Part shown: positions 27,108-63,310 of the stretch, piece by piece
Numbering within the stretch: position 1 is the first letter of the stretch
Layout of the letters: each line of letters starts with the position of its first letter
Assembly: GCA_963798845.1 (NCBI GenBank)
Contig: CAWCUS010000002.1
Location: forward strand, 576,001-640,000
Length of the DNA: 64,000 nucleotides
Direction: 5' to 3'
DNA from: an uncultured Gemmatimonadales bacterium
GTDB taxonomy: Bacteria > Gemmatimonadota > Gemmatimonadetes > Longimicrobiales > RSA9
Notes under the pieces: model-generated
Databases searched by the model: none
The model's input: the letters and a program-made list of their open reading frames with translations, nothing else
What the model was told of the DNA's origin: nothing
Made by a program: the position numbers and the translations under genes

Positions 27108-27150
27108 CTGCAGCCCCGCCGCCTTCCGGGTGGCGGGGCTGCAGCATTTT
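27108..27150 (+). terminator. Intrinsic terminator after susD (possibly bidirectional)
   Basis: 13-bp stem ctgcagccccgcc/ggcggggctgcag followed by catttt. Confidence 0.75.
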
Positions 27151-27159
27151 CCACTACCG

Positions 27160-29184
27160 CTACTGCCGCACCGTCGCCCGGCTGCCCACCAGGTTGGTGG
27201 CGATGGTGAAGTCCACAGTGTCGCCGGGCTCCAGCAGCAGTGGGCCGGAGCGCACCTGGTAGCCATCGCCCGTGGTCCCGGCCAGGAATTCGATCTGGCC
27301 GCCGCTGGCCATCAGCGACTCACGCAACATGAAGCGTCTGCCGAGGCCGGGGCTCGCGGTCCCCAGTCGGCTGGTCGTGCTGCCGTTTGCGGCGTAGACC
27401 TCCATGGGCATCGCGTAGTTGTTCGTGACGTAGACGGTGACGGGGGCCGGCCGCGTTCCCTGTCGCCGCTGGCTCAGGAGCACCAGCCCTTGATCCGTCG
27501 TGAGGGCGAGCGTGTCCGCGTGCACCGTGCCGGTCGCACCCGTGTAGCCGTCTTCGAGCTCGGCGCCGTCTGGGAAGGTGCCGAAGACAGGAATGCGCTT
27601 TGCCCCCGTCGGCTGGTCCAGCGCCACCAGCACGCGGTCGGTGGTCAGGTCCAGCTGGAGCGTGCGGCTGAAGATGTACGGCTCCGCCTGTAGCTCGCGG
27701 TGCATGCCCGAGCCGACTGCCGGATGCGCCCGCCGGAACCGCCCCAGCTTCTGCCAGTGCCGCAGGATCTCCGCCGTGCGGCCTCCCCGTGCCAGGTCGT
27801 CCCAGTTCATGAGGCCGCGCAGGTTCGCATCGCCCTGCGCGCCGGCCACGTGGAGCGGACGCGCGAGCTCATCGCCGTAGTAGATCTGTGCGCCGCCCGG
27901 GGCCAGCAGCAGGCGGGTGCCCGCCTCGAACGGGTGGCTGCGGTCCGGGTCGTACGGCGAACCGTCGTCGTGCGAGCTGAGGTAGTTCAGAATGGCCTCG
28001 CCGCCCAGCGGGCCGGACAGCGACGCGGAGTACCGGGCGTAGAGGCTGTCCAGGGAGCCGTGCTCGGCCTTGAACCCGAAGTTGATGAGACCGTCGTATC
28101 CGTAGTCGAAGAAGTCGACAGTGCGGTCGCCGTAGTCGAACGACCGACCCTGCGCCGGGCTCCAGCCATAGACCTCGCCCAGCATGAAGAAGGGCAGGTC
28201 GTCCAGGACCTTGTCGGGGTGCGCAAGCTTCCAGTCCGTGAAGGCGCGGTCCGCTTCATGTTTCAGCTCGGCGCTGACCGCCGCCTCGATATGCTTGGCC
28301 GTGTCCACCCGATAGCCGTCGAAGCCCAGCTCCCGGACCCAGTCGGTGAGCCACTTGATGACGTAGAAGCGGGGCGCGCGAGGGTAGCCGGTGCGCTGGA
28401 AGAAGGAGTCCAGGGAAGCCGTCTCGCGATCAAGGCGGCCTTCACCACGCCATTTGTCGACGAGCCAGCCCGGGAGGTCGACGGGCGTGTCCCGATCGGT
28501 ACGGATGTCGGGCAGGTTGGCCACCAGCGTGCAGTCCACGGTGGTGGCGAAGTCCTGGTACGTGCAGCGCGGACCGGTTCGGACCCAGCTGTCGGGCCAC
28601 CGGGGATCCTCCGGCGTCACGGGACCGGTGTGATTGACCACGGCGTCCATGAGCACACGGATGCCGTGGCGGTGTGCCGCGTCGACGACTGCACGCAGGT
28701 CGGCCTTCGTGCCCAGGGCGGGGTCCACTTCCGTCCAGTCGCGGGTCCAGTAGCCGTGATAGCCGTAGGTCTTCCCGGCGCCCTCGTCCACGGCGCCCCG
28801 GATCTGCTCTTCGAAGGGTGTCATCCACAGGACGTCTACGCCCAGACTGTCGAAATAGCCGTCCTCGATCCTGCGCAGCACGCCCGCCAGGTCGCCGCCC
28901 TCGAAGCTTCGCAGCTTCGCGCCGTCGTTCGCCCGGCCGAGGGCGCGGTCGTTGGTCGAGTCGCCGTCCAGGAAGCGGTCGGTCAGGAGGAAGTAGACCG
29001 TGGCGTCGTTCCAGAACACCGACGGGTCGCCCAGATCGGCCGCCCACGCAGGCAGGGCCTCCGGTGTCGATCCCGGAGGGTTGCCGCTGCAGGCAGCCAG
29101 GAACGCCGCGCCCAGTCCGAAGGTCAGAGCGCCGAGCGCGTTGGCCATCACCCGGCGGAGCAGATCCTCGCGAGGATGTCTCAT
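27160..29184 (-). CDS. GH13 alpha-amylase lipoprotein with extra C-terminal beta-domain
   Basis: Lipobox FLAAC; YFLLTDRF, GGDLAG, YHGYWTRDW, DAVVNH, DGYRVDTAKH, GEVYG, SSHDD, QIYYGDE. Confidence 0.93.
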   Translation of the reverse strand: MRHPREDLLRRVMANALGALTFGLGAAFLAACSGNPPGSTPEALPAWAADLGDPSVFWNDATVYFLLTDRFLDGDSTNDRALGRANDGAKLRSFEGGDLAGVLRRIEDGYFDSLGVDVLWMTPFEEQIRGAVDEGAGKTYGYHGYWTRDWTEVDPALGTKADLRAVVDAAHRHGIRVLMDAVVNHTGPVTPEDPRWPDSWVRTGPRCTYQDFATTVDCTLVANLPDIRTDRDTPVDLPGWLVDKWRGEGRLDRETASLDSFFQRTGYPRAPRFYVIKWLTDWVRELGFDGYRVDTAKHIEAAVSAELKHEADRAFTDWKLAHPDKVLDDLPFFMLGEVYGWSPAQGRSFDYGDRTVDFFDYGYDGLINFGFKAEHGSLDSLYARYSASLSGPLGGEAILNYLSSHDDGSPYDPDRSHPFEAGTRLLLAPGGAQIYYGDELARPLHVAGAQGDANLRGLMNWDDLARGGRTAEILRHWQKLGRFRRAHPAVGSGMHRELQAEPYIFSRTLQLDLTTDRVLVALDQPTGAKRIPVFGTFPDGAELEDGYTGATGTVHADTLALTTDQGLVLLSQRRQGTRPAPVTVYVTNNYAMPMEVYAANGSTTSRLGTASPGLGRRFMLRESLMASGGQIEFLAGTTGDGYQVRSGPLLLEPGDTVDFTIATNLVGSRATVRQ

Positions 29185-29268
29185 GTTCTCGCTCTCAGAG
29201 ACGCGGAGCCGCGCGCCTGTAGTATACCGATTTCGCCGACCGACCCCCCGGCCTTCGAAGATCGGCGG

Positions 29269-30798
29269 TCATCGATCGTCGATCGTCGCCGCCGTCTCGT
29301 CCCGATCCTCCACGCGCAGCGTCAGCGCCGCGGCGAGCACCAGGGACGCACCGCCCACCAGCAGGGCGTAGATCGCCTCGCCGTGGAAGAACTTCCCCAC
29401 GATGAAGCCGAGCGCGGCAGCCGCCACGATCTGCGGGATCACGATGAAGTAGTTGAACACGCCCATGTAGTAGCCCATCTTCGACGGCGGCAGCGACCCC
29501 GTCAGGATGGCGTACGGCATGGCCAGGATGCTGGCCCAGGCGATGCCGATGCCCACCATGGAGCCCAACAGCAGCCGCGGGTCCTGGATGACGAAGATCG
29601 ATCCGAACCCCACCGCGCCGATCACCAGGCAGATGGCGTGCGTCATCCTGCGGCTCGTCCAGCGCGCGAGCACGGGCAGCCCGAACGCAACCAGGGCCGC
29701 CACGCCGTTGTAGACGCCGAAGCCGACACCCACCCAGTTCGCCCCCTCGTTGTACAGCGCCGAGGTCGTGTCGGCGGTGTGGTAGATGTTCGCCGTCACG
29801 CCCGGTGTCGTGTAGATCCACATGGCGAACAGCGCGAACCAGGAGAAGAACTGCACCCAGGCCAGCTGTTTCATGGTCCGGGGCATGTCCTGGAAGTCGT
29901 TCAGGATGGTGATGAAGGCGTTGTCGTATCGGCCCCCGCGCTGCATCAACCCGCCCGCGATGAGCAACAGCCCCACGACGCCTATGCCTGCCGACAGGAT
30001 CATGACCTGGCCGGCCTGCTCCCGGCTGAGCCAGTAGCTGAACGCCACACCCACGGCCACGCAGGCCAGACCGACCGTGACCTGCCGGGCGCCGTTCGCT
30101 GCGTATTCCTGCGACGTTCGGCGATCCCTGAGGACGCCCTCCCGCGCCCGGTTCTCCTCGAACGACGCCATCTGCTCCGGCGAGTATTCCCGCGACCGGA
30201 CCACCGTCCACAGAACCGCGGCGAAGAACACCACGGCGCCAATGTAGAAGGACAGCCGCACCGACTCTGGGATCATGTGCATCGGCGCTTCGTTGCTCAC
30301 GCCGAGATAGCGCGTGAGCAGATACGGCAGCACGGAGGCCACGACCGCGCCGATTCCGATGAAGAAGCTCTGCATGGCGAACCCGATGGTTCGCTGCGTC
30401 GACGGCAGGTTGTCGCCCACGAATGCGCGGAACGGCTCCATCGAGATGTTGATGGAAGCGTCCATGATCCACAGCATGCCCGCCGCCACCCACAGAACGG
30501 GCGAGTTGGGCATGGCCACCAGCGCCAGCGAGGCCAGGATGGCGCCACCCAGGAAGTAGGGACGCCGCCGGCCCAACCGATTCCAGGTGCGGTCGCTGAA
30601 GTAGCCGACGATGGGCTGCACCACCAGCCCCGTCACCGGGGCCGCGATCCACAGGATCGGGATGTTCTCGACCCGGGCACCCAGCGTCTCGAAGATGCGG
30701 CTCACGTTCGCGTTCTGGAGAGCGAAGCCGAACTGGATGCCCAGGAAGCCGAAGCTCATGTTCCAGACCTCCCAGAACGACAAGCGCGGCTTCTGCAT
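29269..30798 (-). CDS. MFS maltose/maltooligosaccharide permease (MalT/SLC45-like)
   Basis: MQKPRLSFWEVWNMSFGFLGIQFGF, QPIVGYFSDRTW..LGRRRPYF, MEPFRAFVGD, YMGVFNYFIVIPQI; AAGGAG RBS. Confidence 0.93.
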   Translation of the reverse strand: MQKPRLSFWEVWNMSFGFLGIQFGFALQNANVSRIFETLGARVENIPILWIAAPVTGLVVQPIVGYFSDRTWNRLGRRRPYFLGGAILASLALVAMPNSPVLWVAAGMLWIMDASINISMEPFRAFVGDNLPSTQRTIGFAMQSFFIGIGAVVASVLPYLLTRYLGVSNEAPMHMIPESVRLSFYIGAVVFFAAVLWTVVRSREYSPEQMASFEENRAREGVLRDRRTSQEYAANGARQVTVGLACVAVGVAFSYWLSREQAGQVMILSAGIGVVGLLLIAGGLMQRGGRYDNAFITILNDFQDMPRTMKQLAWVQFFSWFALFAMWIYTTPGVTANIYHTADTTSALYNEGANWVGVGFGVYNGVAALVAFGLPVLARWTSRRMTHAICLVIGAVGFGSIFVIQDPRLLLGSMVGIGIAWASILAMPYAILTGSLPPSKMGYYMGVFNYFIVIPQIVAAAALGFIVGKFFHGEAIYALLVGGASLVLAAALTLRVEDRDETAATIDDR

Positions 30799-31034
30799 GG
30801 CGGGTTCTCCTTGACGGAAATCGGATGGGGTCCGCCTGCCCAACGGGGAACCCCGGGCAATTTGCACGGTTCGCCCCGAAACCGCGAGGCTCGCGGGCCA
30901 GTGATCGGAGCGCAATGCTCCCCCGGGGGCCGTTCGCGCCATCCGGGCTGGCGCGTGGAGGCGACGGCGGCATATGCTGGTCTTGCTCTCGCTCGCGTGC
31001 GTGTTGCCAGACCCAGACGAACAGGAAGAGAAGC

Positions 31035-33080
31035 ATGCAGCGTTCGACCCGACGGTGGACCCAATGTCTCGTGGTCGTGGCCGCGGGTGCGGGGCTCCTC
31101 CCCGTACGCGCATCCGCGCAGGCCTCCGTCCCGCTCGCATCGCCGGACGGCCGCAACCAGGTGACCGTCCAGGTCCACGACGGCAAGCTCTCCTACAGCG
31201 TCCAGCGCGACGGCCGCAACATCATGATGCCGTCGCGCCTCGGGCTCGAGTTCCGCACGGTCCTGCCGTTGCGCGACAGCCTGGAGATCGTGGGCGTGAA
31301 GCGGGACAGCCTGGACGAGACGTGGACGCAGCCCTGGGGGCAGGTGGCGAACGTTCGCAACCACTACAACGAAGCCCGCGTCACGGTACGGGAAACCGCC
31401 TCGCCCGGGCGCCACTTCAATGTCGTGTTCCGCGCTTTCGACAATGGCGTCGCTTTCCGCTACGACGTCCCGGCCCAGCCCGGCTTCGGTCCGTACGAGA
31501 TGATGGACGAGCTCACGGAGTTCGCCTTCGCTCTCGACGGCCACGCCTGGTGGATCCCCGCCGGGCTGTGGAACCGCTACGAGTTCCTCTACTCCGAGTC
31601 GCCCGTCAGCCGACTGCCCCTGGTCCACACGCCCCTCACGGTCGAGATGCAGAACGGGGTCTACGTGGTGATTCATGAGGCCGACCTGGAGGACTATGCG
31701 GCGATGAATCTCCAGGGCACCAACACCCGCACGCTCACCGCGTCGCTGGCACCGTGGGCGGACAGCGTGAAAGTGCGGGGGGACGCGCCGCTGGTGAGTC
31801 CGTGGCGGACGATCGAGATGGCGGACCGGGTCGAGGACCTGGAGCCCTCGGTGATGGCGCTCAACCTGAACCCGCCCAGCAGGATCGACGACACCAGCTG
31901 GATCGAGCCGATGAAGTACATCGGGATCTGGTGGGGGATGCACATCAACGTCAACACGTGGAGCGAGGGGCCCAAGCACGGCGCGACCACCGCCAACATG
32001 GAGCGCTACATCGACTTCGCGGCGAAGAACGGTTTCGGCGGCGTGCTCGCGGAGGGGTGGAACAGGGGGTGGAACGGCGACTGGATCGCCAACGCGGACA
32101 GCTTCTCGTTCACGCAGCCCTATCCGGACTACGACCTGAAGGGGATCGCGAAGTACGCGCGGCAGAAGGGCGTTGCGGTGATCGCCCACAACGAGACGTC
32201 CATGGGCATCGAGAACTACGAGCGTCAGCTCGAGGATGCCTACACGCTGTACGAGTCGCTGGGCATCCACGCCATCAAGACCGGCTACGTCGGGGACCTC
32301 ACGAAGGAGGGGAACGCCCACCATGGGCAGTACATGGTGCGGCACTGGAGGAGGGTGGTCGAGGCCGCGGCGCGGCACCACATCATGCTGGACGTTCACG
32401 AGCCGATCAAGGATACGGGCGAGCGCCGGACCTGGCCCAACATGATGACCCGGGAGGGCGCCCGCGGTCAGGAGTACAACGCGTGGGGCGGAGAGGGCGG
32501 CAACCCGCCGGAGCACGAGACGATCCTCTTCTTCACCCGCATGCACGCCGGGCCGATGGACTACACCCCGGGCATCTTCGACATACTGATCCAGTCGGCG
32601 AACGGCACGCCCCGCAAGCCGGAGGAATCCCGGGTCCGGACCACGTTGGCGAAGCAGCTCGCCGACTACGTCGTCCTGTTCTCGCCGCTCCAGATGGCCG
32701 CGGACCTGCCCAAGAACTACGAAGGGAATCCCGCATTCCAGTTCATCAAGGACGTGCCCGTGAACTGGGAGCGGACCAGGGTCCTCAAGGGGAAGATCGG
32801 CGACTACGTCGTCGTCGCACGACAGGAACGGGGCGGGCCCGACTGGTACCTGGGCGCGGTCACCGATGAGGACGCGCGCGCGTTCGAGATCCCGCTCGAC
32901 TTCCTGGATCCAGGGAGGCAGTACGTGGCCGAGATCTATGCCGACGGCCCCGACGCCGACTGGCTGAGCAACCCGCTGCCGGTGAGCATCACCCGCCACG
33001 ACGTCGGCGCCACCACCCGCCTGACGCTGAAGCTCGCGCCCGGCGGCGGCACCGCCATCCGCTTCAGAGCCCGGAGATAG
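31035..33080 (+). CDS. susB: GH97 alpha-glucosidase (SusB-like)
   Basis: LASPDG, IHEADL, KYIGIWWGMH, YIDFAA, EGWNRGW, HEPIKDTG.RRTWPN..TREGARGQE, GPMDYTPG, QMAAD. Confidence 0.95.
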   Translation: MQRSTRRWTQCLVVVAAGAGLLPVRASAQASVPLASPDGRNQVTVQVHDGKLSYSVQRDGRNIMMPSRLGLEFRTVLPLRDSLEIVGVKRDSLDETWTQPWGQVANVRNHYNEARVTVRETASPGRHFNVVFRAFDNGVAFRYDVPAQPGFGPYEMMDELTEFAFALDGHAWWIPAGLWNRYEFLYSESPVSRLPLVHTPLTVEMQNGVYVVIHEADLEDYAAMNLQGTNTRTLTASLAPWADSVKVRGDAPLVSPWRTIEMADRVEDLEPSVMALNLNPPSRIDDTSWIEPMKYIGIWWGMHINVNTWSEGPKHGATTANMERYIDFAAKNGFGGVLAEGWNRGWNGDWIANADSFSFTQPYPDYDLKGIAKYARQKGVAVIAHNETSMGIENYERQLEDAYTLYESLGIHAIKTGYVGDLTKEGNAHHGQYMVRHWRRVVEAAARHHIMLDVHEPIKDTGERRTWPNMMTREGARGQEYNAWGGEGGNPPEHETILFFTRMHAGPMDYTPGIFDILIQSANGTPRKPEESRVRTTLAKQLADYVVLFSPLQMAADLPKNYEGNPAFQFIKDVPVNWERTRVLKGKIGDYVVVARQERGGPDWYLGAVTDEDARAFEIPLDFLDPGRQYVAEIYADGPDADWLSNPLPVSITRHDVGATTRLTLKLAPGGGTAIRFRARR

Positions 33081-52971: not shown

Positions 52972-54027
52972 TCAGTCCGCGAGCTCGCGGGACCAGGCCC
53001 TGAACGCCATCTCCGGGTACCGCCGCGAGAACATGTGCCACTCGCCGAGGGAGGCGGGGACGGTGTAGTCGGCGGCCGCCTGCTCGACCGGTCGCCCGCT
53101 TTCGATGGCCCGGCGCGCGGCGGCCTCCACGTGGTCCAGGAGTGCGATGTATCGGTCCAGGTCCTCCGGTGTGGCCAGCGTGCCGTGACCGGAGACGTAC
53201 GTCTCCGCGTTCTGCGCCCGGAGCGCGCGCACGTGGCGCGAGAGCCGGGACGGGATCGCGTCGACGTAATTGGGGAACATCCCCATCCAGACCAGGTCGC
53301 CGGTGAAGATCACGGGGGCATCGGCGAGCTCGATCACCAGGTCGCTGGGCGTGTGGCCTTCCCGGCCGACCAGGCGAACCGTGCGGCCGCCGAGGTCCAG
53401 CTCCACGGGGTCGCCCTGGTCCGGCAGGAGGTGGTCGGGAAGGAGTACGGGCGTGGCCGACGTGGCGTCGTCGGGCAGCGCCTCCTCGTGCCCCGCGGTG
53501 AGTCGCCGGGTGGTCCGGGTGGCGATCATGGTGGGCGGCGCCCCATCGCGCACGTAGCCCACGGTTCCGCTCGTATGGTCGGCGTGGTAGTGAGTGAGCA
53601 CGACATGGGTCGGGCGACGGCCCACCCGCCGCTCTGCCTCCTCGGCCAGCCACGCGGCGCCCGCCGGGGTCCCGAACCCTTCCACGGCCAGGACCGCGTC
53701 CCGCCCCGCGACCAGGCCGCCGTTGCACACCGTTCGCCGGGCGTCCGGGCTGTCGGCGAGCGGAGTGGAGACCACGGCCCAGGTGTCGTCGGCGATGGGG
53801 ACGAGGCTCCCCCACGGCTCCGGCGCTGGGGCGGCACGAAGCCAGCCGCCGGAGCGAGCCGAGCCCGAAAGGCCGGCCGGGGCCGCGCGAGCGCGCCCGG
53901 GGAGGAGCCCGCCCGCGGTCAGGGCCGCTGCGCCGGCCGCGGCGGCCCGTACGAACGCCCTCCGTCCCATGCCGCCGTCCGCCACGGCTCCAGCCTCGAT
54001 CTTCCGCTCCGGATCCCGCTCGCTCAT
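52972..54027 (-). CDS. Tat-exported MBL-fold metallo-hydrolase
   Basis: MGRRAFV Tat motif; THYHADH, GHTPSD, FTGDL, SGHG. Confidence 0.9.
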   Translation of the reverse strand: MSERDPERKIEAGAVADGGMGRRAFVRAAAAGAAALTAGGLLPGRARAAPAGLSGSARSGGWLRAAPAPEPWGSLVPIADDTWAVVSTPLADSPDARRTVCNGGLVAGRDAVLAVEGFGTPAGAAWLAEEAERRVGRRPTHVVLTHYHADHTSGTVGYVRDGAPPTMIATRTTRRLTAGHEEALPDDATSATPVLLPDHLLPDQGDPVELDLGGRTVRLVGREGHTPSDLVIELADAPVIFTGDLVWMGMFPNYVDAIPSRLSRHVRALRAQNAETYVSGHGTLATPEDLDRYIALLDHVEAAARRAIESGRPVEQAAADYTVPASLGEWHMFSRRYPEMAFRAWSRELAD

Positions 54028-54099
54028 GACCGTTCCTCGCGTCGACTGTGTGTGGTCAATATCGGGTCCCGCCGACCCTCGCGCGACCGGCCGGCCGCG

Positions 54100-54783
54100 T
54101 CAGCGGCTGAGGGGCTCGCGGGCGCCGAGGACGCGGAGGTTGCGGGCGAAGCGGACCAGGAGCATCAGGAACATGATGCCGATGCCCGACGTGACGATCG
54201 GGTTGGCGAACGGCTTGATGGCCGTGGGGGAAAGGCCGTTGATCACGGCGAAGTAGAGCCCCGTGTTGACGATCGCCATGCCGATGCGCCCTTCGGTGGG
54301 GCCGAAGCGACCGTACGAGATGTTGAAGACCCCGTACACCGCCGACTCCAGGTACACGTTGATGGAGAGCATCAGGTAGACGATCACCAGCAGAAGCGAC
54401 ACCCAGAGGGAGATGAAGGGCGAGAGTCCCATCCCGCCCGCGATGAGGGCCGTGGTCACCGCGTCGACGGCGTGGTCGATGTAGTAGCCGTACTTCGGTC
54501 GCTCGCGATGCCGGAGGCGGGCGACGGTGCCATCGAGGCTGTCCCCGAACCAGTTCACCACCAGCATCCCGGTCGCCAGCCACAGCCACCCGGGGCTGAG
54601 CTCCGAGAGTGCGTAGCTCGCGGTGACGCCCACCGCGCCGATCACCCCGACGACCGTCAGCTGGTCCGAGGTCAGCCAGCTGGGGAGACGGCGAGCGATC
54701 GCCTGCAGCACGCGTCGCTCGGGACCGGCCAGCAGGAACGTCATCTCCCGCCGGGATTTCTCGCCGCCGCCCCCAGCGCTCAA
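54100..54783 (-). CDS. CDP-alcohol phosphatidyltransferase family protein
   Basis: DSLDGTVARLR....PKYGYYIDHAVD signature; TTG start with GGAGGTG RBS. Confidence 0.92.
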   Translation of the reverse strand: MSAGGGGEKSRREMTFLLAGPERRVLQAIARRLPSWLTSDQLTVVGVIGAVGVTASYALSELSPGWLWLATGMLVVNWFGDSLDGTVARLRHRERPKYGYYIDHAVDAVTTALIAGGMGLSPFISLWVSLLLVIVYLMLSINVYLESAVYGVFNISYGRFGPTEGRIGMAIVNTGLYFAVINGLSPTAIKPFANPIVTSGIGIMFLMLLVRFARNLRVLGAREPLSR

Positions 54784-54951
54784 ACACACCTCCACGATCG
54801 TCTCGGCTCCGCGTCCGGGGGAGCCTAGCCGCCGCCGCGTGTCTCCGCCAGTCCGCGCGAGCGCCGCCGGTGCCCCGGGGAACGTTGACAAATCACCGCC
54901 CTGGCGCTCTTCATCACGGTCCCGGTTCCCGGCAGCACGAAAGCAGCGCAC

Positions 54952-57069
54952 GTGAGAGCTCTCTCCCTCATTGTCGCCCTCGCCCCGGCCATCTCTTCCA
55001 GCCCCGCGCCGGCGGCATTCCCGATCCCGCCGTCGAGCCTCCAGGCCTCGCCATGGGCGACGACGGTCCCGGCCGACACCGGGGGCGTGGACACGGTCCG
55101 GTCGGACGCCGCCGCGGCGGACAGCTCCGCCGCTGCGTACCGCCTGGGGGAGATCGTGGCCAGCGTGGAGCGCCCGGTGTCGGAAGCCGCGGCAACGGTC
55201 CGGGTGATCACGGCGCGCGAGATCGAGGCGACCGGGGCGAGGACGCTGGACGAAGCGCTCCTGCTGGTGCCTGGGCTGGAGGTCCGCACCGGAGGCCAGG
55301 GAGTGCCGCGAGTCGACCTGCGGGGTCTCCGCTCGCGGCACGTGCTGCTTCTGCTGAACGGGATCCCGCTGAACTCGACGTACGACGGCCAGTTCGATCC
55401 GGCGTTCATCCCGACCGAGGAGATCGAGCGCATCAAGGTGACCACCGGCACGGGCTCGGTGCTGTACGGGGAGGGCGGCCTGGCGGGAACGATCAACGTC
55501 ATCACACGCTCAGGGGGGCGGCGCCTGTCGGGAGAAGCCTCGGCCGAAGCCCGTGAGGTGGATGGGGGGCTGGCCTCGGTACGCGCGGGGACGGGCACGG
55601 AGCACGTGTCGGTGTTCGCCTCGGGCAGCATCGCCTCCGTGAACGGCTTTCCCTCGCTGACCGGGTCTCCCGCGGCCGGCTCGCCAGGTGAGGAGGGGGT
55701 ACGGGGCAACAGTGACAGGAAGAGAGCGAACGGGATGGCGCTGGTGACGGCGTCGCCGGCCGCGGGAGTGCAGCTCGGGCTGGCCGCCGGGGTGAGCCGG
55801 GGCGAGTACGGGATCCCGCCGGAAGTGCAGGCCGATCCGGAAGACCGGTTCGCGCGCAGCCCGACGTACGACCGGGTGGAGGCGCGCGACGACGGCTACG
55901 CGCAGATGGCGGCCTCGCTGGGCTCGCCGGGCGGGCCGCGGCTCCGTTCCTGGGCTTACGTGAACGGCCTGGACCTGCACGAGGCGCGCTACGACGACTC
56001 CACGTACAGCTCCATGGAGGCGCGGGGCAGCTACGATTCCCACACGCGCACGCGGCTCACGGGCGTGGGCGTGCAGGCGGCGTCGAAGGCGGGTCGGCTG
56101 GGGCGGCTGACCCTCGGTCTGTCCGCGCAGCGCGACGCCTGGACGCTGCACCTGCGGGTGCGCAATGCGGCGGTCGGCTCCGGCCGCGACCGCACGTGGG
56201 AAATGCGCTCCTTCCACGACGATCGAACGCTCGCCCGCTACGGCACGGCGCTCGAGTACCAGGTCCGGCCCACGGACCGTCTCGGGATCGTGGCCGGCTA
56301 CATGCACCACTGGCTGCGGCGTGATGCCGCCGCCGACACCGCGCCGCGGGAGGAGGGGACCACCGGCGCGGACGGCTTGATGGCGGCGGTCAGCTTCGAC
56401 GCTTCCTCCAGCACGCGGCTGAGGGTGGCGGCGTCGCGCAAGTTCCGGTTCCCGACGATCCGGCAGCTGTACGACGAGGTGGCGGGGAACCCGACCCTGG
56501 GCACGGAGCGGTCCGACGTGGTGGAGGCGGGTGTGCACCAGCAGTTGCGTCGGGTGATGGTGGACGTGACAGTGTACAGGATGACGATCCACGACTTCAT
56601 CGAGCGCCCGTCGCGGAACGAGCCGTTCGCGAACTTCCAGCGCTACCGGTTCACCGGCGTCGAGCTGGCCGCCGAGGCGCGGCCAACGGACGCGCTCACG
56701 CTGCGGGGCGGGTACACGTTCATGGACGCCGTGGACGCGTCCGCAGGCGCGGGACGGCAGGAGCTCCAGTACCGGCCGCGTCACCACGCCACGCTGGAGA
56801 CGGGCTACGCCTTCCCGTTCGGCTTCGCCGCCACCGCCACCGCGAGCCGCGTCGCAGGTCAGTACTATTACTCCCGCCAGGAGCCGGTGGAGAAGGGGCA
56901 GCTCCCCGACTACACGATCGTGGGCCTCCGGCTCGTGCAGGACCTGTCCTGGCAGAACGCGGCGGTCTACGCCGGCGCGGACAACCTGTTCGACGTGGGG
57001 TACGAGGAGGAGTACGGCTCTCCCCGGGCGACCCGGACGCTCTACGTTGGAGCGCGCGTCCGATGGTGA
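54952..57069 (+). CDS. TonB-dependent receptor (BtuB/CirA-like, non-SusC)
   Basis: Signal peptide; plug VITAREIEATGARTLDEAL..VPG, LRG, IERIKV..G.GSVLYG, GTINVIT; ADNLFD..YEE, C-terminal W. Confidence 0.93.
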   Translation: MRALSLIVALAPAISSSPAPAAFPIPPSSLQASPWATTVPADTGGVDTVRSDAAAADSSAAAYRLGEIVASVERPVSEAAATVRVITAREIEATGARTLDEALLLVPGLEVRTGGQGVPRVDLRGLRSRHVLLLLNGIPLNSTYDGQFDPAFIPTEEIERIKVTTGTGSVLYGEGGLAGTINVITRSGGRRLSGEASAEAREVDGGLASVRAGTGTEHVSVFASGSIASVNGFPSLTGSPAAGSPGEEGVRGNSDRKRANGMALVTASPAAGVQLGLAAGVSRGEYGIPPEVQADPEDRFARSPTYDRVEARDDGYAQMAASLGSPGGPRLRSWAYVNGLDLHEARYDDSTYSSMEARGSYDSHTRTRLTGVGVQAASKAGRLGRLTLGLSAQRDAWTLHLRVRNAAVGSGRDRTWEMRSFHDDRTLARYGTALEYQVRPTDRLGIVAGYMHHWLRRDAAADTAPREEGTTGADGLMAAVSFDASSSTRLRVAASRKFRFPTIRQLYDEVAGNPTLGTERSDVVEAGVHQQLRRVMVDVTVYRMTIHDFIERPSRNEPFANFQRYRFTGVELAAEARPTDALTLRGGYTFMDAVDASAGAGRQELQYRPRHHATLETGYAFPFGFAATATASRVAGQYYYSRQEPVEKGQLPDYTIVGLRLVQDLSWQNAAVYAGADNLFDVGYEEEYGSPRATRTLYVGARVRW

Positions 57070-57776
57070 CGGCCGGCCCGGGCATGCAGCGCTTCCTCAC
57101 GCTCGATGAGGTCCTGCTCGGGCAGTCCCGCGTCCCCACGCTGGCGGGGCGCCACCGCGTGCGGGCGGCGGAGCTCGCCACGCTGCTCGGTCTCGGGATC
57201 TGCGCCGCGGCGCTCACCACCTTCGTACACCTCGGGCTGCGCGTGCCCGGGCACCACATCGTTTTCGCAGTGTTCCCCGTGGCGCTCGGGCTCGCGCTCG
57301 TGCCGCGACGGGCGGCCGGGTCGGTCATGGGCGCGGGCGCGGCGGCGGGGGTCGTCGCCTTCGGCTTCATGGGCTTCCACCTTCCGGGTCCGGGGGCGCT
57401 GACCAGCTTGCTCCTCACCGGTCCGCTGCTGGACGTGGCGCTCCGCATCGGCCGACGCGGCGTTCGCCTGCACCTTGCCTTCCTCCTCGGCGGCGCGGCT
57501 GCCAACGCCATCGCCTTCGTCGTGCGCGGCGCCACCAGGGCCGCCGGGCTCCACGCAATGGCGGGCGCGCGGCCGTTCCCGGCCTGGTTCTCGCAGGCCG
57601 TCTGGACGTACGCTGCCGCCGGGCTCGTGGCGGGCGGCGTGAGCGCCCTCGCCTGGTTCCACATCGGCGTGCGGTGGAGAGGCGAGCGAGGTAGCGGGGC
57701 CGATGCCCCAGCCGGGACGGATGAGCCTGGAGCAGAAGACCCCGGGCGCGACCGACGCCCTCGCCGGAATCCGTGA
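57063..57776 (+). CDS. Hypothetical 5-6 TM membrane protein, ECF S-component-like
   Basis: Hydrophobic Gly/Ala-rich helices, LRVPGHH motif, GPLLD; start overlaps receptor stop. Confidence 0.7.
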   Translation: MVTAGPGMQRFLTLDEVLLGQSRVPTLAGRHRVRAAELATLLGLGICAAALTTFVHLGLRVPGHHIVFAVFPVALGLALVPRRAAGSVMGAGAAAGVVAFGFMGFHLPGPGALTSLLLTGPLLDVALRIGRRGVRLHLAFLLGGAAANAIAFVVRGATRAAGLHAMAGARPFPAWFSQAVWTYAAAGLVAGGVSALAWFHIGVRWRGERGSGADAPAGTDEPGAEDPGRDRRPRRNP

Positions 57777-57791
57777 CGGGAGAGGATCTCG

Positions 57792-58745
57792 ATGGAGCTG
57801 CACGGCGTTCACCACCTGACCGCGATCACCGCCGATGTCCGGGAGAACCACCGCTTCTACACGCGCGTTCTCGGCCTGCGCCTGGTCAAGCGGAGCGTCA
57901 ACCAGGACGACGTCTCCGCGTACCACCTCTTCTACGCCGACGGCGAAGGGCGTCCGGGCACGGACATCACGTTTTTCGACTGGCCCGTCCCCCCCGAGCG
58001 ACGGGGCACGCGCAGCCTGGTGAGGACGCACATGCGGGTGGCCGACCGCACCTCGCTGGAATGGTGGCTCGAGCGCCTGGACGGGAGCGGAGTTGCGCAC
58101 GCCGGGATCGTGGAGCGTGACGGCCGCGCCACCATCGACTTCGAGGACCCCGAGGGGCAGCGGCTGTCGCTGATCGAGGACGGCGGCGAGGGCGATCCGC
58201 CGTCGTACTGGGACGGGTGCCCGGTGCCGCAGGAGCACCAGATCCGCGGCCTCGGGCCGATTGTCATGAGCGCCCCCACGCTGCAGCCCACGGACATCAT
58301 CCTCACCGAGGTTCTCGGCATGAACGCGGTCAGGGAGTATGACGACCCGGTTTACGGCCCTGGCGGGGTGCACGTCTTCCGCATGGCCGCCGACGGCCCG
58401 CAGGGGGAGCTGCACGTGGCGGTGCAGCCCGATCTCCAGCCCGCGCGCCAGGGCGCCGGCGGCGTCCACCACGTGGCGTTCCGCACTCCCGACGAGGACG
58501 AGTACGAGGCGTGGGTGGAGCGGCTCGGCGAGCTGGGCGTCCCGAACAGCGGCCCGGTGGACCGCTTCTGGTTCCGCAGCCTCTATTTCCGCGAGCCGAA
58601 CGGCGTCCTCTTCGAGATCGCCACCGACGGACCCGGCTTCGCCGTGGACGAGAACCCCGACACACTGGGCGAGAAGGTTGTCCTGCCCCCGTTCCTGGAG
58701 CCGCGGCGCGACGCGATCCTGGCGGGGCTCAAGCCGATTGAGTAG
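57792..58745 (+). CDS. VOC-family ring-cleaving dioxygenase (MhqA/MhqO-like)
   Basis: GVHHLTAI, LVKRSVNQDD...YHLFY, GTDITFF, VHHVAFR, DRFWFRSLYFREPNGVLFEIATDGPGF. Confidence 0.95.
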   Translation: MELHGVHHLTAITADVRENHRFYTRVLGLRLVKRSVNQDDVSAYHLFYADGEGRPGTDITFFDWPVPPERRGTRSLVRTHMRVADRTSLEWWLERLDGSGVAHAGIVERDGRATIDFEDPEGQRLSLIEDGGEGDPPSYWDGCPVPQEHQIRGLGPIVMSAPTLQPTDIILTEVLGMNAVREYDDPVYGPGGVHVFRMAADGPQGELHVAVQPDLQPARQGAGGVHHVAFRTPDEDEYEAWVERLGELGVPNSGPVDRFWFRSLYFREPNGVLFEIATDGPGFAVDENPDTLGEKVVLPPFLEPRRDAILAGLKPIE

Positions 58746-58764
58746 GGCCGCCAGCGCAGGTGAG

Positions 58765-59602
58765 ATGGGGCCGGCCGCCGGGCCCGACCTCCTCATCGGC
58801 CTGGACGACACCGACGTCGTGGGCTCGCCGGGGACCAACCAGCTCGCGCGCCGCATCGCCGACGCGCTTCCGCATGGGTTCATCGCCGACGTGGTGCTCC
58901 GGCATCAGCTGCTGAAGGACCCGCGGATCCCGTTCACGAGCCAGAACGGCAGCGCCTCGATCGGCGTCCGGGTGTCCGCGGAGATGGCCCGGGCGCTGCC
59001 CGTCGGCCCGTCCGCCGCGCTGCCGATGGCGGAGGCTGTCGACTCGCCCCTCCACGGCCTGCTGGCCTTCCTGCGTGCCGAGATCCTGGCGTTCGCGCCT
59101 CCGGGCAGTGATCCCGGGCTCGCCGTCGCGCACGCCCGCCTGTTTCCGCCGACGCGGACGCCACACTCCGCCGGCAGCGGGCCCGGCCAGCCGCGGTCGG
59201 ACGCTGGCGGCTTACGGCCGCCGCTGCCAGAGCGAGCCGATCACACAGGGAGCGGCGAGGGAGCTGGCCGGGAGCCACGGCATTCACCTCGAGGGGCTCG
59301 GTGGAACCGAGGACGGCATCATCGGCGCGCTCGCCGCCGTGGTCCTGCGGGCGGGCGGCGAAGATGGCCGCGTGGTCCACCGCCGGGGCTGGCCCTGGCC
59401 CGACCCCTTCACGGGCCTTCGCACGGTCGAGGAGGTGCACGCCCGCGGCGTGGATGAGGTGAGGGTGCTCGCCACGGGAGCGCCCGTGCACCAGGGGCTC
59501 GTCGATGTCGGGAAGCGGCTCCGCCCGGCTTTCCGCGGGGGTCGGGTCGTCCTGTTCGTCGAGTCCGGTGAGGCGGCGTGGCGCGGGCTCAAAGTGCCGT
59601 GA
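58765..59602 (+). pseudogene. TiaS N-terminal kinase-domain-like protein (IGLDDTD family), frameshifted between about 59135 and 59200
   Basis: Frame 1: IGLDDTDVVGSPGT, RHQLLKDPRIPFTSQNGSA, GSDPGLAV; +1 frame: YGRRCQ, HLEGLGGTEDGIIGALAAV, GEDGR. Confidence 0.82.
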
Positions 59603-59656
59603 CTGGCGGCGCGGGGCGTCGTATGTTGCCGGGTCGCTCGCAGAAACGACCGTGAG

Positions 59657-60379
59657 GTGGCCGTGGCCGTAACGAATTCCGATCGCTTTCTGGTCTCGTT
59701 CGCGCAGGCGGAGGACGCGCTCAAGCGGATGCTGGGGACGTCGTCGAAGGACTCGTTCCGCTGGACGGTCAGGCAGGCGGCGAAGCGGAGCGCAGTGGTG
59801 CGCTCCGTGGAGGAGGACCTCCTCGAGTTCGCGGATCTCCGGAACGCAATCGTGCACGACCGCGGCGGCGGGTACGTGATCGCGGAGCCGCACGTCGCGA
59901 CGGTGGAGCGGCTGGAGGTGATCGTCGCGCTGCTCACCGATCCGCCGCGCATCGACGGCACCATGTCGCATCCCGTGGTCACCTGCTCGGCGGAGGACCC
60001 GATCGGGGAGGCGGCCCAGCGCATGGTGAAGGGCGGATTCACGCGGCTTCCCGTCTACTCCGGCGACGAGCTGGTCGGCCTCCTCACCGCGCACGCCATC
60101 GCCCGCTGGATCGCCACGAAGCTGGCCGGGCCGCTCGACACGCTTCACGAGGAGCCGGTCCGCGCCGTGCTCGAGTACGGGAACGGCGTGAAGCGGTTCG
60201 AGCTGGTGTCGCGGGATCGACTGGTGGCGGACGTGGTCCGGCTGTTCACCGGGGCCACCGAGCGCGGGCGCCGGCTGGAAGCGGTCCTCGTCACGGCGAA
60301 CGGGCTGCCGACGGAGCGGCTGTTGGGGATCGTGACGGTCCAGGACCTCCCCCGCCTCTACGGTGTCATCGCCCCCTGA
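59657..60379 (+). CDS. CBS domain protein with helical N-terminal domain
   Basis: N-terminal NSDRFL..F..AE, LRNAIVH; CBS pair (MSHPVVT, FTRLPV, LGIVTVQDL). Confidence 0.88.
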   Translation: MAVAVTNSDRFLVSFAQAEDALKRMLGTSSKDSFRWTVRQAAKRSAVVRSVEEDLLEFADLRNAIVHDRGGGYVIAEPHVATVERLEVIVALLTDPPRIDGTMSHPVVTCSAEDPIGEAAQRMVKGGFTRLPVYSGDELVGLLTAHAIARWIATKLAGPLDTLHEEPVRAVLEYGNGVKRFELVSRDRLVADVVRLFTGATERGRRLEAVLVTANGLPTERLLGIVTVQDLPRLYGVIAP

Positions 60380-60391
60380 CCGTTCCGGGCG

Positions 60392-60985
60392 CTAGCCGTT
60401 GTAGATGAGCCCGCCCCGGCTGGCGTAGAGCTGGAGCACGGCGCGCGCTTCGTCGCGCAGGACGCCAGGCACCATCTCGATCCCGCGCTCCTCCACGTAC
60501 CGGATCGATTCCGGGAAGACCGGCCCTTCGTCGAACTGAAGGCGCAGGGCGTCCTCGCGCCCGGCGCCCCACGCCAGGCGGCGGACCCCGCTCCACAGCA
60601 CCGCGCCGAGGCACATGGCGCACGGAGCGCACGACGACACCAGCTCGTGGGCAGGCAGGCCCTCCGCCGCCAGCGTGAACGTGCCCAGGCGCTGCTGGGC
60701 GAACATGAGCGCGGTCATCTCGGCGTGAAGCGCCGAGTTCCTGAGCCGCTCCACGCTGTTCAGCCCCACGCTCACGAGCCTGCCGCTGTCCCGCTCGAAA
60801 ACGGCGGCGGCGAACGGACCGCCCGCCCGGCGGAGCACGTTCTCGCGCGACAGCTCGATCACCAGCCGCATGCGATCTTCGAGCGATGCGAGCACCGCGT
60901 TCGCCGGCACCACCTCCAGGACCCACCCGGGGAGCGACACCTCCACCCCCCGGGTGGGGATGCGTCCTTCGCCTGCTTCTGCCAT
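60392..60985 (-). CDS. Zinc-dependent nucleoside/nucleobase deaminase (CDA/TadA/guanine deaminase superfamily)
   Basis: GGPFAAAVF, HAE, SCAPCAMCLGA, FDEGP; AAAGG RBS. Confidence 0.92.
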   Translation of the reverse strand: MAEAGEGRIPTRGVEVSLPGWVLEVVPANAVLASLEDRMRLVIELSRENVLRRAGGPFAAAVFERDSGRLVSVGLNSVERLRNSALHAEMTALMFAQQRLGTFTLAAEGLPAHELVSSCAPCAMCLGAVLWSGVRRLAWGAGREDALRLQFDEGPVFPESIRYVEERGIEMVPGVLRDEARAVLQLYASRGGLIYNG

Positions 60986-61054
60986 GGCACCTTTCTTCGA
61001 AGCGGGACCTGCCATCGGGCGGCCCCGTTCCGTACGCCCCGGCGCGCTCCGCGG

Positions 61055-63310
61055 CTACCGCTGCGGCGCGATCGCGTACCCCGCGGGCGGCTGCGCGCCG
61101 AGCAGGTTCTTCACGAAGTAGTCCCACCGCCGCCGGATCATGTACGGCGTCATGGCGAATCCGTGCCGCTGGTCCGGGAAGAGGATGAGGTCGAAGTCCT
61201 TGTTCGCGTCGATCAGCGCCTGCACGACGAGCAGTGTGTTGTAGTACGGCACGTTGTCGTCCACCGCGCCGTGGGCGAGGAGCAGCTTCCCCTTCAGGTT
61301 GTTCGCGAGCAGCTGGTTGGCCTGGTTGTCGTAGCTGGTCTTCCCGTTCCCCAGATCGCGCAGCAGCCCCTGCCACTTCTCGCCCCAGTCGTCCTCGTAC
61401 ATCCTGTTGTCGTGGTTGCCCGCCTCGCTCACCGCCACCTTGTAGAAGTCGGGGTAGCGCAGCATGGCGTCCGTGGACGCGAAGCCGCCGCCGGAGTGGC
61501 CCCAGATCCCGACCCGGTCCAGGTCCATCCAGGAGTAGCGCTCGGCCAGCTGCCGGATGCCCGCGATCTGGTCCGGGAGCCCGTTGTCACCCATGTCCCC
61601 ATAGTAGGCCGCCTGGAACGACTGGGTGCGCATCGGCCCGCCCATGGCGTTCAGGGCGACCACCACGAAGCCGAGCTCCGCCAGCGACTGGTGGTCGCGG
61701 CGCGCGCCGCTCCACCCCCACGTGCTCACGCTCCCGCTCTGCGGGCCCGGGTAGACGTAGTTGATCACCGGGTACCGCTTCGACGGATCGAAGCTCGTTG
61801 GACGGAACAGCAGCCCGTACAGGTCCGTCTTCCCGTCCCTCGCCTTCACCGTGAACGGCATCGGCGGCTGCCAGCCCGTGGCCAGCAGGCGCGAGATGTC
61901 CGCTGTCTCGAGCTGTGCCACGACGTGGCCGTCGGCGGCGTCGCGCAGGACCGTGACCGGGGCCGTGGTCGGGGTCGAATACGTGTCCACGAACCAGCGT
62001 CCGTCCGGCGACAGCGAGACGTCGTGGTTGGCGCTGTCCGGGGTGAGCAGTGCCGGCGGACCGCCGTCGAGGCTGACGCGATAGAAATCGGTGAAGTAGG
62101 GGTTTCCCACCTGGCCGCCGTTGCCGACGAACCAGACCGTGCGGCTGTCCGGATCAACGCGCAGCACGTCGAGCACGTTGTAGTGGCCGGGTCCGATGGG
62201 GTGCTTCAGAGACCCGGTATCCAGGTCGTACAGGAAGAGCCTGCCCCAGTCGTCGCGCCGGGAGTACCAGATCAGCTCGTGGCTGTCGGGGAGCAGTCGC
62301 CAGTTCCAGTCGTCGTAGCCGGTCTCGAGGAACGTGGGCGACGTTTCCTCGAGCACGGTCCGGACCTCCCCCGTGGCGGCATCCGCTACGCGCAGGGTGG
62401 CGTGCTGGTGGTCTCGGGAGGTGGACACGAAGGCCACCCGTCGGCTGTCCGGCGTCCACTCCAGGTCGGCGAACGTGCCGTTGCAGTAGACGTGGTCGCA
62501 CACCGAGGAGCGGTGCGGGTCGGGCGGCATCTTGAAGCGGATGATCTCCGGCGACGCCGGGTCGCTCACGTCGACGACCAGCCGCTCGATGCGGAAGATC
62601 ACCGTGTCTTCCGGGAGGGGATAGCGCCACGAGTCCAGCTCGGGGTGCCCGGCGCGCGTGTGGGTGACGTACATGCGGCCAACGCCGCGGGCGTCGTGAC
62701 GGAACGTGGCGATGTGCTTGGAGTCCGGCGACCAGCGGAGCACGGGCCTGTCGCTTCGCACCCATCCCGCATTGTTGGTGGCGTAGCCGTAGTCTTCCTG
62801 GCCGTCCGTGGTCAGCCGGTGGTCCTCGTGCGTGGCGAGGTCGCGCACCCAGAGGTCATGGCCCCGGATGAATGCGCCCCACTTCCGGTCGGGGGAGACG
62901 ACGGCGTTCCGCAGCCACGCTTTCCCCTCCTCGCTCGCCGTCCAGCCCGTGTCCGCCGGCATCAGCGCCTTCGCCCGGGGGTCGTCGCCCGCCAGCCGCT
63001 CCACCTCCCCGCTGGACGGCGTGACCAGCACCACCTGCTCGCCGTCCGGCGTGGTGGTCCGGTACCAGAAGCGGCCGTCATCCAGCCAACTGGGAGAGAC
63101 GCGCGCGCCGAACACCTCGTCCTGCACGGTCGGCTGGAGGAACTGCTCCGCGCGCTCGTAGTCCGCGCTGGTCAGAGAGTCCGGGGCGTACCGGGTCGTT
63201 GTGGGCCCGACGGGCGTCGGCGCGGCGACGGCGGGTGCTCCCGCGCTGCCGCACGCGGCGAAGAGCGCGGCGCCGGCGAGCGCCGCAAAGGGGACGAGAC
63301 GGTGTCGCAT
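61055..63310 (-). CDS. S9B dipeptidyl peptidase IV family lipoprotein
   Basis: Lipobox FAAC; WSPDS propeller, YPGPQ, GIWGHSGGG nucleophile, HGAVDDNV, QRHG. Confidence 0.94.
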   Translation of the reverse strand: MRHRLVPFAALAGAALFAACGSAGAPAVAAPTPVGPTTTRYAPDSLTSADYERAEQFLQPTVQDEVFGARVSPSWLDDGRFWYRTTTPDGEQVVLVTPSSGEVERLAGDDPRAKALMPADTGWTASEEGKAWLRNAVVSPDRKWGAFIRGHDLWVRDLATHEDHRLTTDGQEDYGYATNNAGWVRSDRPVLRWSPDSKHIATFRHDARGVGRMYVTHTRAGHPELDSWRYPLPEDTVIFRIERLVVDVSDPASPEIIRFKMPPDPHRSSVCDHVYCNGTFADLEWTPDSRRVAFVSTSRDHQHATLRVADAATGEVRTVLEETSPTFLETGYDDWNWRLLPDSHELIWYSRRDDWGRLFLYDLDTGSLKHPIGPGHYNVLDVLRVDPDSRTVWFVGNGGQVGNPYFTDFYRVSLDGGPPALLTPDSANHDVSLSPDGRWFVDTYSTPTTAPVTVLRDAADGHVVAQLETADISRLLATGWQPPMPFTVKARDGKTDLYGLLFRPTSFDPSKRYPVINYVYPGPQSGSVSTWGWSGARRDHQSLAELGFVVVALNAMGGPMRTQSFQAAYYGDMGDNGLPDQIAGIRQLAERYSWMDLDRVGIWGHSGGGFASTDAMLRYPDFYKVAVSEAGNHDNRMYEDDWGEKWQGLLRDLGNGKTSYDNQANQLLANNLKGKLLLAHGAVDDNVPYYNTLLVVQALIDANKDFDLILFPDQRHGFAMTPYMIRRRWDYFVKNLLGAQPPAGYAIAPQR

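Follow-up and report, generated by a model that had tools for sequence, protein, structure and literature searches.

We describe a locus that may encode a molybdenum- or tungsten-linked (Mo/W-linked) uptake module, identified in a stretch of 64,000 nucleotides (the window; positions 576,001 to 640,000 of contig CAWCUS010000002.1) from an uncultured Gemmatimonadales bacterium. Its core comprises a TonB-dependent receptor, a membrane protein with the fold of an energy-coupling factor (ECF) S-component, and an enzyme related to TCKD, the ATP-using kinase domain of the archaeal tRNA-modifying enzyme TiaS. We estimate at roughly 55% the probability that this core is a three-part Mo/W-linked uptake module whose TCKD-like enzyme acts on the imported species at the expense of ATP. 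The evidence consists of the folds and homologies of the core proteins, the conserved partnership of their genes, and the membership of the module in Mo/W regulons observed in other lineages. The genome to which the window belongs (G000) comprises 4.26 Mb in 6 contigs, with about 72% G+C. The genes of the locus are the following:

54952-57069, plus strand: TonB-dependent outer-membrane receptor, 705 amino acids (aa), with Pfam Plug and barrel domains
57063-57776, plus strand: six-helix inner-membrane protein with an ECF S-component fold according to predicted structure and profile homology, 237 aa
57792-58745, plus strand: two-module VOC ring-cleaving dioxygenase of the MhqO/PcpA type, 317 aa, by Pfam and Protein Data Bank (PDB) sequence matches
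58765-59602, plus strand: TiaS-TCKD-like, putatively ATP-using enzyme, 838 nucleotides (nt), frameshifted near 59163, by profile and predicted structure
59657-60379, plus strand: CBS-pair protein with an unassigned N-terminal part of about 95 aa, 240 aa in total, by Pfam CBS

The open reading frames (ORFs) of the receptor and the membrane protein overlap by 7 nt (57063-57069), and the later gaps measure 15, 19 and 54 nt. A preliminary description of this locus had reported the same five co-oriented genes with this overlap and these gaps, in agreement with the ORF coordinates.

To place the locus in context, two collections of related loci were used. The first, referred to as the close branch, consists of 80 loci from species-representative genomes (23 Gemmatimonadota, 13 Acidobacteriota, 43 Planctomycetota and 1 unassigned), whose neighbouring ORFs were clustered de novo and the clusters scanned against family libraries. 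In 79 of these 80 loci, the gene immediately preceding the TCKD-like gene was that of the membrane protein, commonly with stop/start overlaps between the two, and the sole exception (L006) corresponds to a contig end. A receptor belonging to the same cluster was present in 27 of the 80 loci, distributed over 18 of 23 Gemmatimonadota, 9 of 13 Acidobacteriota and 0 of 43 Planctomycetota, while a VOC or CBS gene adjoined the module in none of the 80. The conserved unit is therefore smaller than five genes: it is the pair of S-component-like and TCKD-like proteins, with the receptor as the usual third part in two phyla. The preliminary description had proposed a search for co-occurrence in other genomes, and the receptor, the membrane protein and the DDTD-motif (TCKD-like) protein were indeed found together there. 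Among 41 related genomes, a set that includes the unpublished G017 and G026 and is also the basis of the AOR and ModA tallies given below, the TCKD-like gene was carried by G000, G001 and G003 only.

Genes associated with molybdenum and tungsten were observed repeatedly around this conserved pair, with at least one Mo/W-linked neighbour in 29 of the 80 close-branch loci. ModE-like genes were identified in 19 of the 80 (TIGR00637, E 3.4e-17, under the cut-off), including the Gemmatimonadota loci L011, L012, L015 and L021. The commonest planctomycete layout comprised a ModE-like helix-turn-helix gene, the membrane protein gene, the TCKD-like gene and a gene for a DUF1559 prepilin-type protein. 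In L058, L059 and L063, a tungsten-type aldehyde:ferredoxin oxidoreductase (AOR) gene on one side and the genes FwdD/B/A and Ftr(-FwdC) on the other flank the pair, in the order AOR, membrane gene, TCKD-like gene, FwdD/B/A, Ftr(-FwdC), with MoeA-PBP fusions upstream. The same downstream order was observed in L072, where AOR and MoeA-PBP were not detected. As a separate observation, the DUF1559/H-X9-DG prepilin-type gene is located directly downstream of the TCKD-like gene in 26 planctomycete loci (e.g. L056:10761-11693), is co-stranded with it in 25 of 27 copies, and occupies the place taken by the TonB receptor in other phyla.

The second collection, the distant branch, comprises 80 metagenome loci obtained from a contig scan with 12 more distant family members, and its enzymes are about 30-40% identical to those of the window's branch. 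Some transporter part was observed in 52 of these 80 loci. In 29 of the 80, the enzyme gene belongs to (Big_5 lipoprotein)-FecCD-ABC ATPase-Peripla_BP_2 operons, encoding type II, BtuCDF-like importers, and in 17 of the 80 it belongs to operons composed of a TonB receptor, an ABC ATPase, CbiQ/EcfT and an S-like protein. The enzyme gene was accompanied by TonB receptors in 13 distant loci and by ExbB/ExbD in 7. Homologues of the molybdenum storage protein of Azotobacter, a member of the amino-acid-kinase family, were identified in 8 of the 80 (2ogx_B, 3e-72; 2ogx_A, 4.6e-48), and Fdh-alpha-type molybdoenzymes in 4.

The regulatory evidence was obtained from Rfam scans of 58 loci, namely 39 of the distant branch, 11 close-branch loci from Gemmatimonadota and 8 close-branch loci from Planctomycetota/Acidobacteriota. 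The molybdenum cofactor (Moco)/tungsten riboswitch RF01055 was detected in 15 of the 39 distant loci (2/9, 4/10 and 9/20), with all matches above the gathering score (49-80 bits vs 36). In L121, L125 and L138, the TCKD-like gene itself immediately follows the riboswitch, and in L129, L132, L134, L143, L165, L175 and L180 the riboswitch precedes the Big_5-FecCD-ABC-BP-TCKD operon. Elsewhere, it preceded a further receptor gene (L118), ECF genes (L125, L133) and a formate-dehydrogenase-type gene (L156, L165). The sole riboswitch of another class in the scanned loci was a c-di-GMP-I element about 1.9 kb downstream of the TCKD-like gene (L149:10595-10684).

In addition, several features of the distant-branch loci deserve a description of their own. 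RF01055 elements also occur in tandem, with three copies before the formate-dehydrogenase-type gene (L165:9176-9756) and pairs before a TonB receptor gene (L118:4380-5031) and before a molybdopterin oxidoreductase gene (L156:1879-2311). The first gene of the riboswitch-led FecCD-ABC-BP-TCKD operons encodes a Big_5 (bacterial Ig-like) protein, observed at L119:4202-4996 and in 13 further loci, for which a role in capture at the cell surface or in the periplasm is possible. Immediately after the TCKD-like gene, 12 distant loci encode a protein of about 70 aa with a conserved C-terminal 'SCYNCRYRRW'-like motif and no Pfam match (e.g. L127:2232-2444, L167:2522-2743 and L172:3006-3215).

A FastTree phylogeny of 155 family members placed 79 rows with a solitary S-type partner on one side of a branch with support 100, and this group also takes in the planctomycete loci embedded among AOR and Fwd genes. 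Across the tree, ECF and type II partners interchange about 5 times each, from which no order of events was read, as sampling differs between the collections.

The relationship of the enzyme to TiaS was supported at the level of both profile and structure. A profile of the TCKD-like family matched TiaS PDB chains with E values of 1.6e-15 to 5.2e-14 over profile positions 2-156. The predicted structure of the intact orthologue from G001, a genome of the same genus, reached a pLDDT of 92.2; its best 9 Foldseek matches were all TiaS, and in the VIA structure comparison it aligned with 3amt_A at Z 20.9 (rmsd 1.9 Å over 153 residues), with the next unrelated row at Z 6.3. Across 117 sequences, residues D11, D12 and T13 of the DDTD motif are invariant and D14 is conserved in at least 90%. 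Furthermore, the near-invariant Thr of a 'GT' motif (T21 in G001 numbering) aligns in HMMER with Thr18 of TiaS, which is the autophosphorylation and catalytic residue of that enzyme. Pfam PF22641 (TiaS_TCKD) scored 18.2 and 22.1 bits, under the gathering cut-off of 27, and the same label is present as a precomputed annotation on many of the homologues. The family comprises stand-alone proteins of about 230-265 aa, with at least 938 matches in one search and at least 705 clusters at 50% identity in another. The OB fold and zinc ribbon that hold the tRNA in TiaS were absent from the family members and from the G001 model: this model stops at residue 264, behind a small domain rich in beta strands, and in TiaS chains the aligned part reaches no further than residue 220. 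A predicted complex of the membrane protein and the TCKD-like protein, computed for the natural pair L010/P0030, gave a score of 0.00, to which no weight is given either way.

Additional relatives of the TCKD domain were observed outside this set. Four long proteins (P0279-P0282, 837-942 aa) combine a TCKD-like domain with an FAD-dependent oxidoreductase in one chain; a BFD-like [2Fe-2S] domain is added in three of the four, and these fusions are too rare to interpret. Residues 129-177 of the L002 TCKD-like protein, in its C-terminal motif region, matched TIGR03280, 'methanogenesis marker protein 11' (E 6.2e-08, far under the cut-off), which hints at the sequence level that this archaeal protein is also TCKD-related. 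A weak second match to the N-terminal part of TCKD was found in the window's genome at G000:C1:754823-754987 (L004), with E 5.3e-4 and one in-frame TGA.

In the window, the enzyme gene is interrupted. The preliminary description had treated 58765-59602 as one gene and missed a frameshift: the region is 838 nt long, which is not divisible by 3, and a single spanning ORF is absent. ORF 58339-59457 has the frame of the N-terminal part (GLDDTD...), and ORF 59075-59602 that of the C-terminal part (...LEGLGGTEDGIIGALAAV...LKVP). The G001 orthologue is intact, with 264 aa (L002:1027-1818, minus strand). DNA alignment with it reveals a single additional base in the window near 59163 and a 3-base indel, and both differences (window 59141-59203) fall inside a linker whose length varies across the family. 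The sole public run found, available as contigs, gave no cover across 59134-59700; the frameshift may be a real mutation or an assembly error.

The membrane protein (57063-57776) had no Pfam or NCBIfam match. Its AlphaFold2 model (pLDDT 86.1, pTM 0.80) was compared by VIA, in which the best 14 rows were all ECF S-components, with 150-176 residues aligned and Z from 10.8 to 7.8, a range that calls for caution, since helical bundles can produce Z values under about 13. ThiT (10.8), YkoE (10.6), RibU (10.3), NikM (8.7), BtuM (8.2) and PanT (7.8) were among these rows, together with FolT and BioY, and the following row fell to Z 6.0. Because the Foldseek result was weak (best match RibU, E 0.044) and the helical-bundle warning applies, the assignment also rests on an hhalign comparison with an ECF-linked family, which gave a probability of 96.8% and E 2e-10 over 168 columns. 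In distant-branch operons, genes of this family stand beside those for CbiQ/EcfT and an ABC ATPase. Homology between the branches is visible at the profile level alone, as tblastn of the close-branch membrane proteins against the distant-branch loci returned 3 weak matches, 1 of them adjoining the enzyme gene. Fold match and profile homology thus identify the predicted structure as an ECF S-component fold. EcfT/EcfA genes were found neither in the window, as the preliminary description had already noted, nor beside the 79 close-branch pairs, and the single CbiQ of G000 is located in a CbiM-CbiQ-CbiO cluster on another contig. Since no ECF module adjoins it, the membrane protein may act as a solitary S-component. 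In L021, L024, L046 and L066, the loop that joins helices 5 and 6 of the S-component-like protein also contains poly-glycine insertions, up to about 40 residues long.

The receptor (54952-57069) matched PF07715 Plug (1.2e-25) and PF00593 TonB_dep_Rec_b-barrel (2.1e-28). Its best NCBIfam matches were of the BtuB, siderophore and haem types, all far under the cut-off; in comparison with the BtuB families, it scored 130.1 bits for TIGR01779 (cut-off 599.7) and 97.9 for NF007926 (cut-off 836), and assignment to BtuB was not obtained. The receptor is 46-55% identical to module-adjoining receptors of Gemmatimonadota loci and 33-42% identical, over the full length, to distant-branch receptors in L126, L149, L128, L151, L158 and L110. 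From these similarities, it is assigned to a subfamily that travels with the TCKD-like gene, and given its full-length identity to the distant-branch receptors, the receptor too is part of the system.

The two remaining genes have a different distribution. The VOC protein matched Pfam Glyoxalase (9.4e-22) in 2 stretches and, in the PDB, 1zsw (3.6e-72), B. subtilis MhqO (3oaj, 1.4e-50) and PcpA (4huz, 3.5e-27); the similarity to MhqO/PcpA covers residues 4-317, and the protein is a predicted ring-cleaving dioxygenase of this type. The CBS protein matched Pfam CBS (6.5e-16), and its PDB matches were CBS-domain chains only. In G001, the order is membrane gene, VOC, TCKD-like gene and CBS. In G003, it is receptor, membrane gene and TCKD-like gene, with the VOC gene missing. 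One VOC match was observed in L012, about 7 kb away and on the opposite strand. The VOC and CBS genes are additions within one genus, and the VOC gene, since it is placed between them, is probably co-transcribed with the membrane protein and TCKD-like genes. In terms of individual proteins, all five assignments of the preliminary description (TonB receptor, ECF-S-like protein, VOC dioxygenase, TiaS-like kinase and CBS protein) are borne out by these comparisons, and the S-component fold, whose absence it had named as grounds for giving up its proposal, was found.

In the proposed mechanism, the TonB receptor would bring a scarce Mo/W species, probably a chelate and possibly an oxyanion, across the outer membrane, and the S-component-type protein would then move it across the inner membrane. 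The latter would perhaps act as a solitary protein here, and elsewhere with its own EcfT/EcfA, or be replaced by a BtuCDF-like importer. The TCKD-like enzyme appears to retain the ATP site of TiaS, with DDTD and the Thr18 equivalent and without the OB fold and zinc ribbon, and would spend ATP on the cargo. This expenditure could serve to trap the cargo; alternatively, it could free or activate the metal, which would then enter cofactor synthesis or storage. In relatives, the module would be switched by Moco/W riboswitches or ModE-like repressors. More speculatively, the cargo could be a catechol- or hydroquinone-type chelate whose ligand would be destroyed by the genus-specific MhqO/PcpA-type dioxygenase. 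A wider interpretation, tentative and in our judgement somewhat short of even odds, is that a widespread, unrecognised route of Mo/W acquisition exists. Its parts would be a TonB receptor subfamily dedicated to it, either a likewise dedicated family of ECF S-components (alone or accompanied by EcfT/A) or an importer of the BtuCDF-like kind, and a kinase domain of the TiaS type that has moved from modifying RNA to processing small molecules or metals.

Other explanations were weighed against this Mo/W module. Repression by a Moco riboswitch would fit equally well if the import concerned a pterin-type precursor or breakdown product of the molybdenum or tungsten cofactor, to be re-phosphorylated or activated by the TCKD-like enzyme, an arrangement comparable to vitamin uptake in which a kinase traps the cargo. 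The usual cargo of TonB receptors, ECF S-components and BtuCDF-type importers is an organic cofactor or a chelate, not a free oxyanion, and the TCKD model resembles the pterin pyrophosphokinase HPPK weakly (Foldseek E 0.011-0.05, VIA Z 5.2-5.5), near noise and as a lead only. The nearby molybdenum-storage-protein homologues and ModE-like regulators favour the metal instead; Moco and its precursors are labile, and we know of no bacterial salvage route for them, which makes this cargo unlikely. We consider similarly unlikely that the Gemmatimonadota branch serves to import something else, be it a different metal chelate or another micronutrient (an iron siderophore, nickel or cobalt, for example), so that the Mo/W link could not be transferred to it. 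This would account for the absence of Mo/W regulators and riboswitches from G000, G001 and G003 and of riboswitches from the 11 scanned Gemmatimonadota loci; it would also suit the ArsR/SmtB metalloregulators at most 8 kb away in 4 close-branch loci, as well as the BtuB- and siderophore-type families that are the receptor's best matches, all under cut-off. Yet ModE-like genes adjoin the module in the four Gemmatimonadota loci named above, the solitary-S branch is one well-supported group that includes the AOR/Fwd-embedded planctomycete loci, and the distant branch, to which the riboswitch-led loci belong, has orthologues of the receptor in its ECF- and ABC-type loci.

The pathway of the preliminary description, in which all five genes import and activate with ATP a quinone-like compound, a cofactor or a modified nucleobase, draws on the tight spacing, on the order of membrane gene, VOC, TCKD and CBS shared with G001, and on the insertion of the VOC gene between two genes that are adjacent elsewhere. 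It is quite improbable in view of the absence of adjoining VOC and CBS genes from all 80 related loci, the lack of VOC in G003 and the restriction of the arrangement to one genus; its proposed substrates gained no support, and the evidence favours Mo/W. Uptake of a corrinoid (B12), comparable to BtuB with BtuM, BtuCDF or ECF-CbrT and with the TCKD-like enzyme as a corrinoid-processing kinase, is suggested by the three importer types found with the enzyme, all of which serve B12 elsewhere, by TonB-B12 as the top NCBIfam match of the receptor (130 bits, cut-off 599.7) and by the VIA match to BtuM (Z 8.2). Neither the window nor any of the 58 scanned loci yielded a cobalamin riboswitch, compared with 15 loci with the Moco/W riboswitch, and the neighbours are Mo/W genes, not cob/cbi, so that a corrinoid cargo is very improbable. 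Finally, the clear homology to the TiaS catalytic domain could mean that the TCKD-like protein is a TiaS-like RNA-modifying enzyme in an incidental transporter neighbourhood. Its length of 230-265 aa, the short domain after TCKD, the missing OB fold and zinc ribbon, and the importer linkage kept in 79 of 80 close and 52 of 80 distant loci leave this explanation with hardly any probability.

Several observations weigh against the Mo/W-linked uptake module itself. Within the window, no riboswitch or other Rfam match was found, and neither RF01055 nor a ModE-type domain was found anywhere in G000, G001 or G003; AOR was likewise not found in these three genomes. Regulatory confirmation of the Mo/W link is thus not provided by the window's own genome. 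Riboswitches were also absent from all 11 Gemmatimonadota and all 8 Planctomycetota/Acidobacteriota close-branch loci scanned; the riboswitch-free lineages of this branch, in our interpretation, use ModE-like proteins or other regulators. Transfer of the function to the window would rely on homology, with close-branch sequences about 50-65% identical, and on the constancy of the gene partners, and the function may have shifted between the branches, whose identity is only about 30-40%. A TupA/B-like system is present in G000, so no Mo/W transporter is missing there, and the distribution of ModA discriminates weakly. A transporter part is missing from 28 of the 80 distant loci, 17 of which are contigs shorter than 4.1 kb. 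The Z scores for the S-component fold (at most 10.8) lie within the helical-bundle warning range of VIA, and we know of no S-component or TonB receptor that carries an oxyanion. Moreover, because the enzyme gene is frameshifted, the module may be inactive here; the TCKD-like gene is possibly dead in this assembly.

Two additional arguments were considered and set aside. A link to AOR in the window's family was dropped, as AOR was found in 1 of the 41 genomes, and that genome is without the module. An argument from a missing transporter was also dropped: ModA, over the cut-off in 25 of the 41 genomes and found in G003, was not found in G000 or G001, yet G000 encodes a TupA/TupB-like ABC transporter about 3.4 kb from MoeA (G000:C1:366785-372000; L098, L093), with scores under the equivalog cut-offs.

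The module shows partial similarity to several characterized systems. TiaS, the archaeal tRNA(Ile2) 2-agmatinylcytidine synthetase (PDB 3AMT, 3AMU, 3AU7, 4RVZ and 3U02), splits ATP to AMP and PPi and phosphorylates the carbonyl of C34. The TCKD fold, DDTD and the Thr18 equivalent are common to both enzymes; unlike TiaS, the enzyme described here is bacterial, is linked to an importer instead of standing alone, and is without the OB fold and zinc ribbon. Solitary action has been reported for some BioY proteins among the S-components. Solitary S-components, BtuM being one, are noted in passages of PMC11109136. The combination of BtuB and BtuM resembles the present locus in pairing a TonB receptor with a protein of S-component fold with no ECF module adjoining. 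It differs in that the module has no cobalamin riboswitch and no cob genes, has a Mo/W regulatory context, and, unlike BtuM, appears to have an obligatory cytoplasmic TCKD-like partner. Group I ECF transporters (CbiMNQO/NikMNQO) are comparable through the distant-branch S-like homologue, encoded in an operon with CbiQ/EcfT and an ABC ATPase, and through the NikM match (Z 8.7). In contrast to these transporters, no T or A genes adjoin the module in the window and the 79 related loci, and the N-terminal metal-binding motif of CbiM/NikM is not evident in the membrane protein.

Mo/W uptake is classically assigned to ModABC, TupABC and WtpABC. With these systems and MolBCA, the module has in common its membership in Moco/W riboswitch and ModE regulons, as is the case for mod and tup genes, and the type II transporter MolBCA (HI1470-72) is of the same ABC type as the distant-branch FecCD/Peripla_BP_2 operons. 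ModABC, TupABC, WtpABC and MolBCA all operate without a TonB receptor, an S-component or a TCKD-like enzyme. PnuC-NadR and other vitamin kinase pairs also join a small membrane carrier to a cytoplasmic ATP-using enzyme that acts on the cargo, an analogy of logic only, as the folds are unrelated. In full-text literature searches, which had subscription-only journals outside their scope, no publication on the module was found. Judged by sequence comparison, the locus appears to encode an undescribed module for micronutrient uptake that includes the TCKD-like enzyme family.

In the surroundings of the locus, a minus-strand CDP-alcohol phosphatidyltransferase gene ends near 54861 on the left, and a minus-strand cytidine-deaminase-type gene (60392-61015) is located on the right. 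A promoter and terminator scan of 54000-61200 returned 0 sites of either kind. Elsewhere in the window, a polysaccharide-utilisation-like cluster was observed at 16487-33080, comprising a SusC-type receptor gene (22527-25499), a SusD gene (25515-27083), two alpha-amylase-family genes, GH97, GH2 and an aldose epimerase gene.

If the proposed function is true, the receptor and the membrane protein would be the first TonB receptor and S-component specific for Mo/W, and the enzyme would represent a new enzymatic step that links Mo/W uptake to storage or to cofactor synthesis. Three objects become available for experimental tests: a receptor subfamily, an S-component family, and a putative ATP-using enzyme family whose only characterized relative modifies archaeal tRNA. 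Knowledge of the enzyme's reaction would give a function to a family that is now annotated as hypothetical or mis-named. The module family, with its at least 705 clusters at 50% identity, spans phyla of soil, freshwater and sediment, and the finding would bear on how bacteria obtain scarce or organic-bound molybdenum and tungsten.

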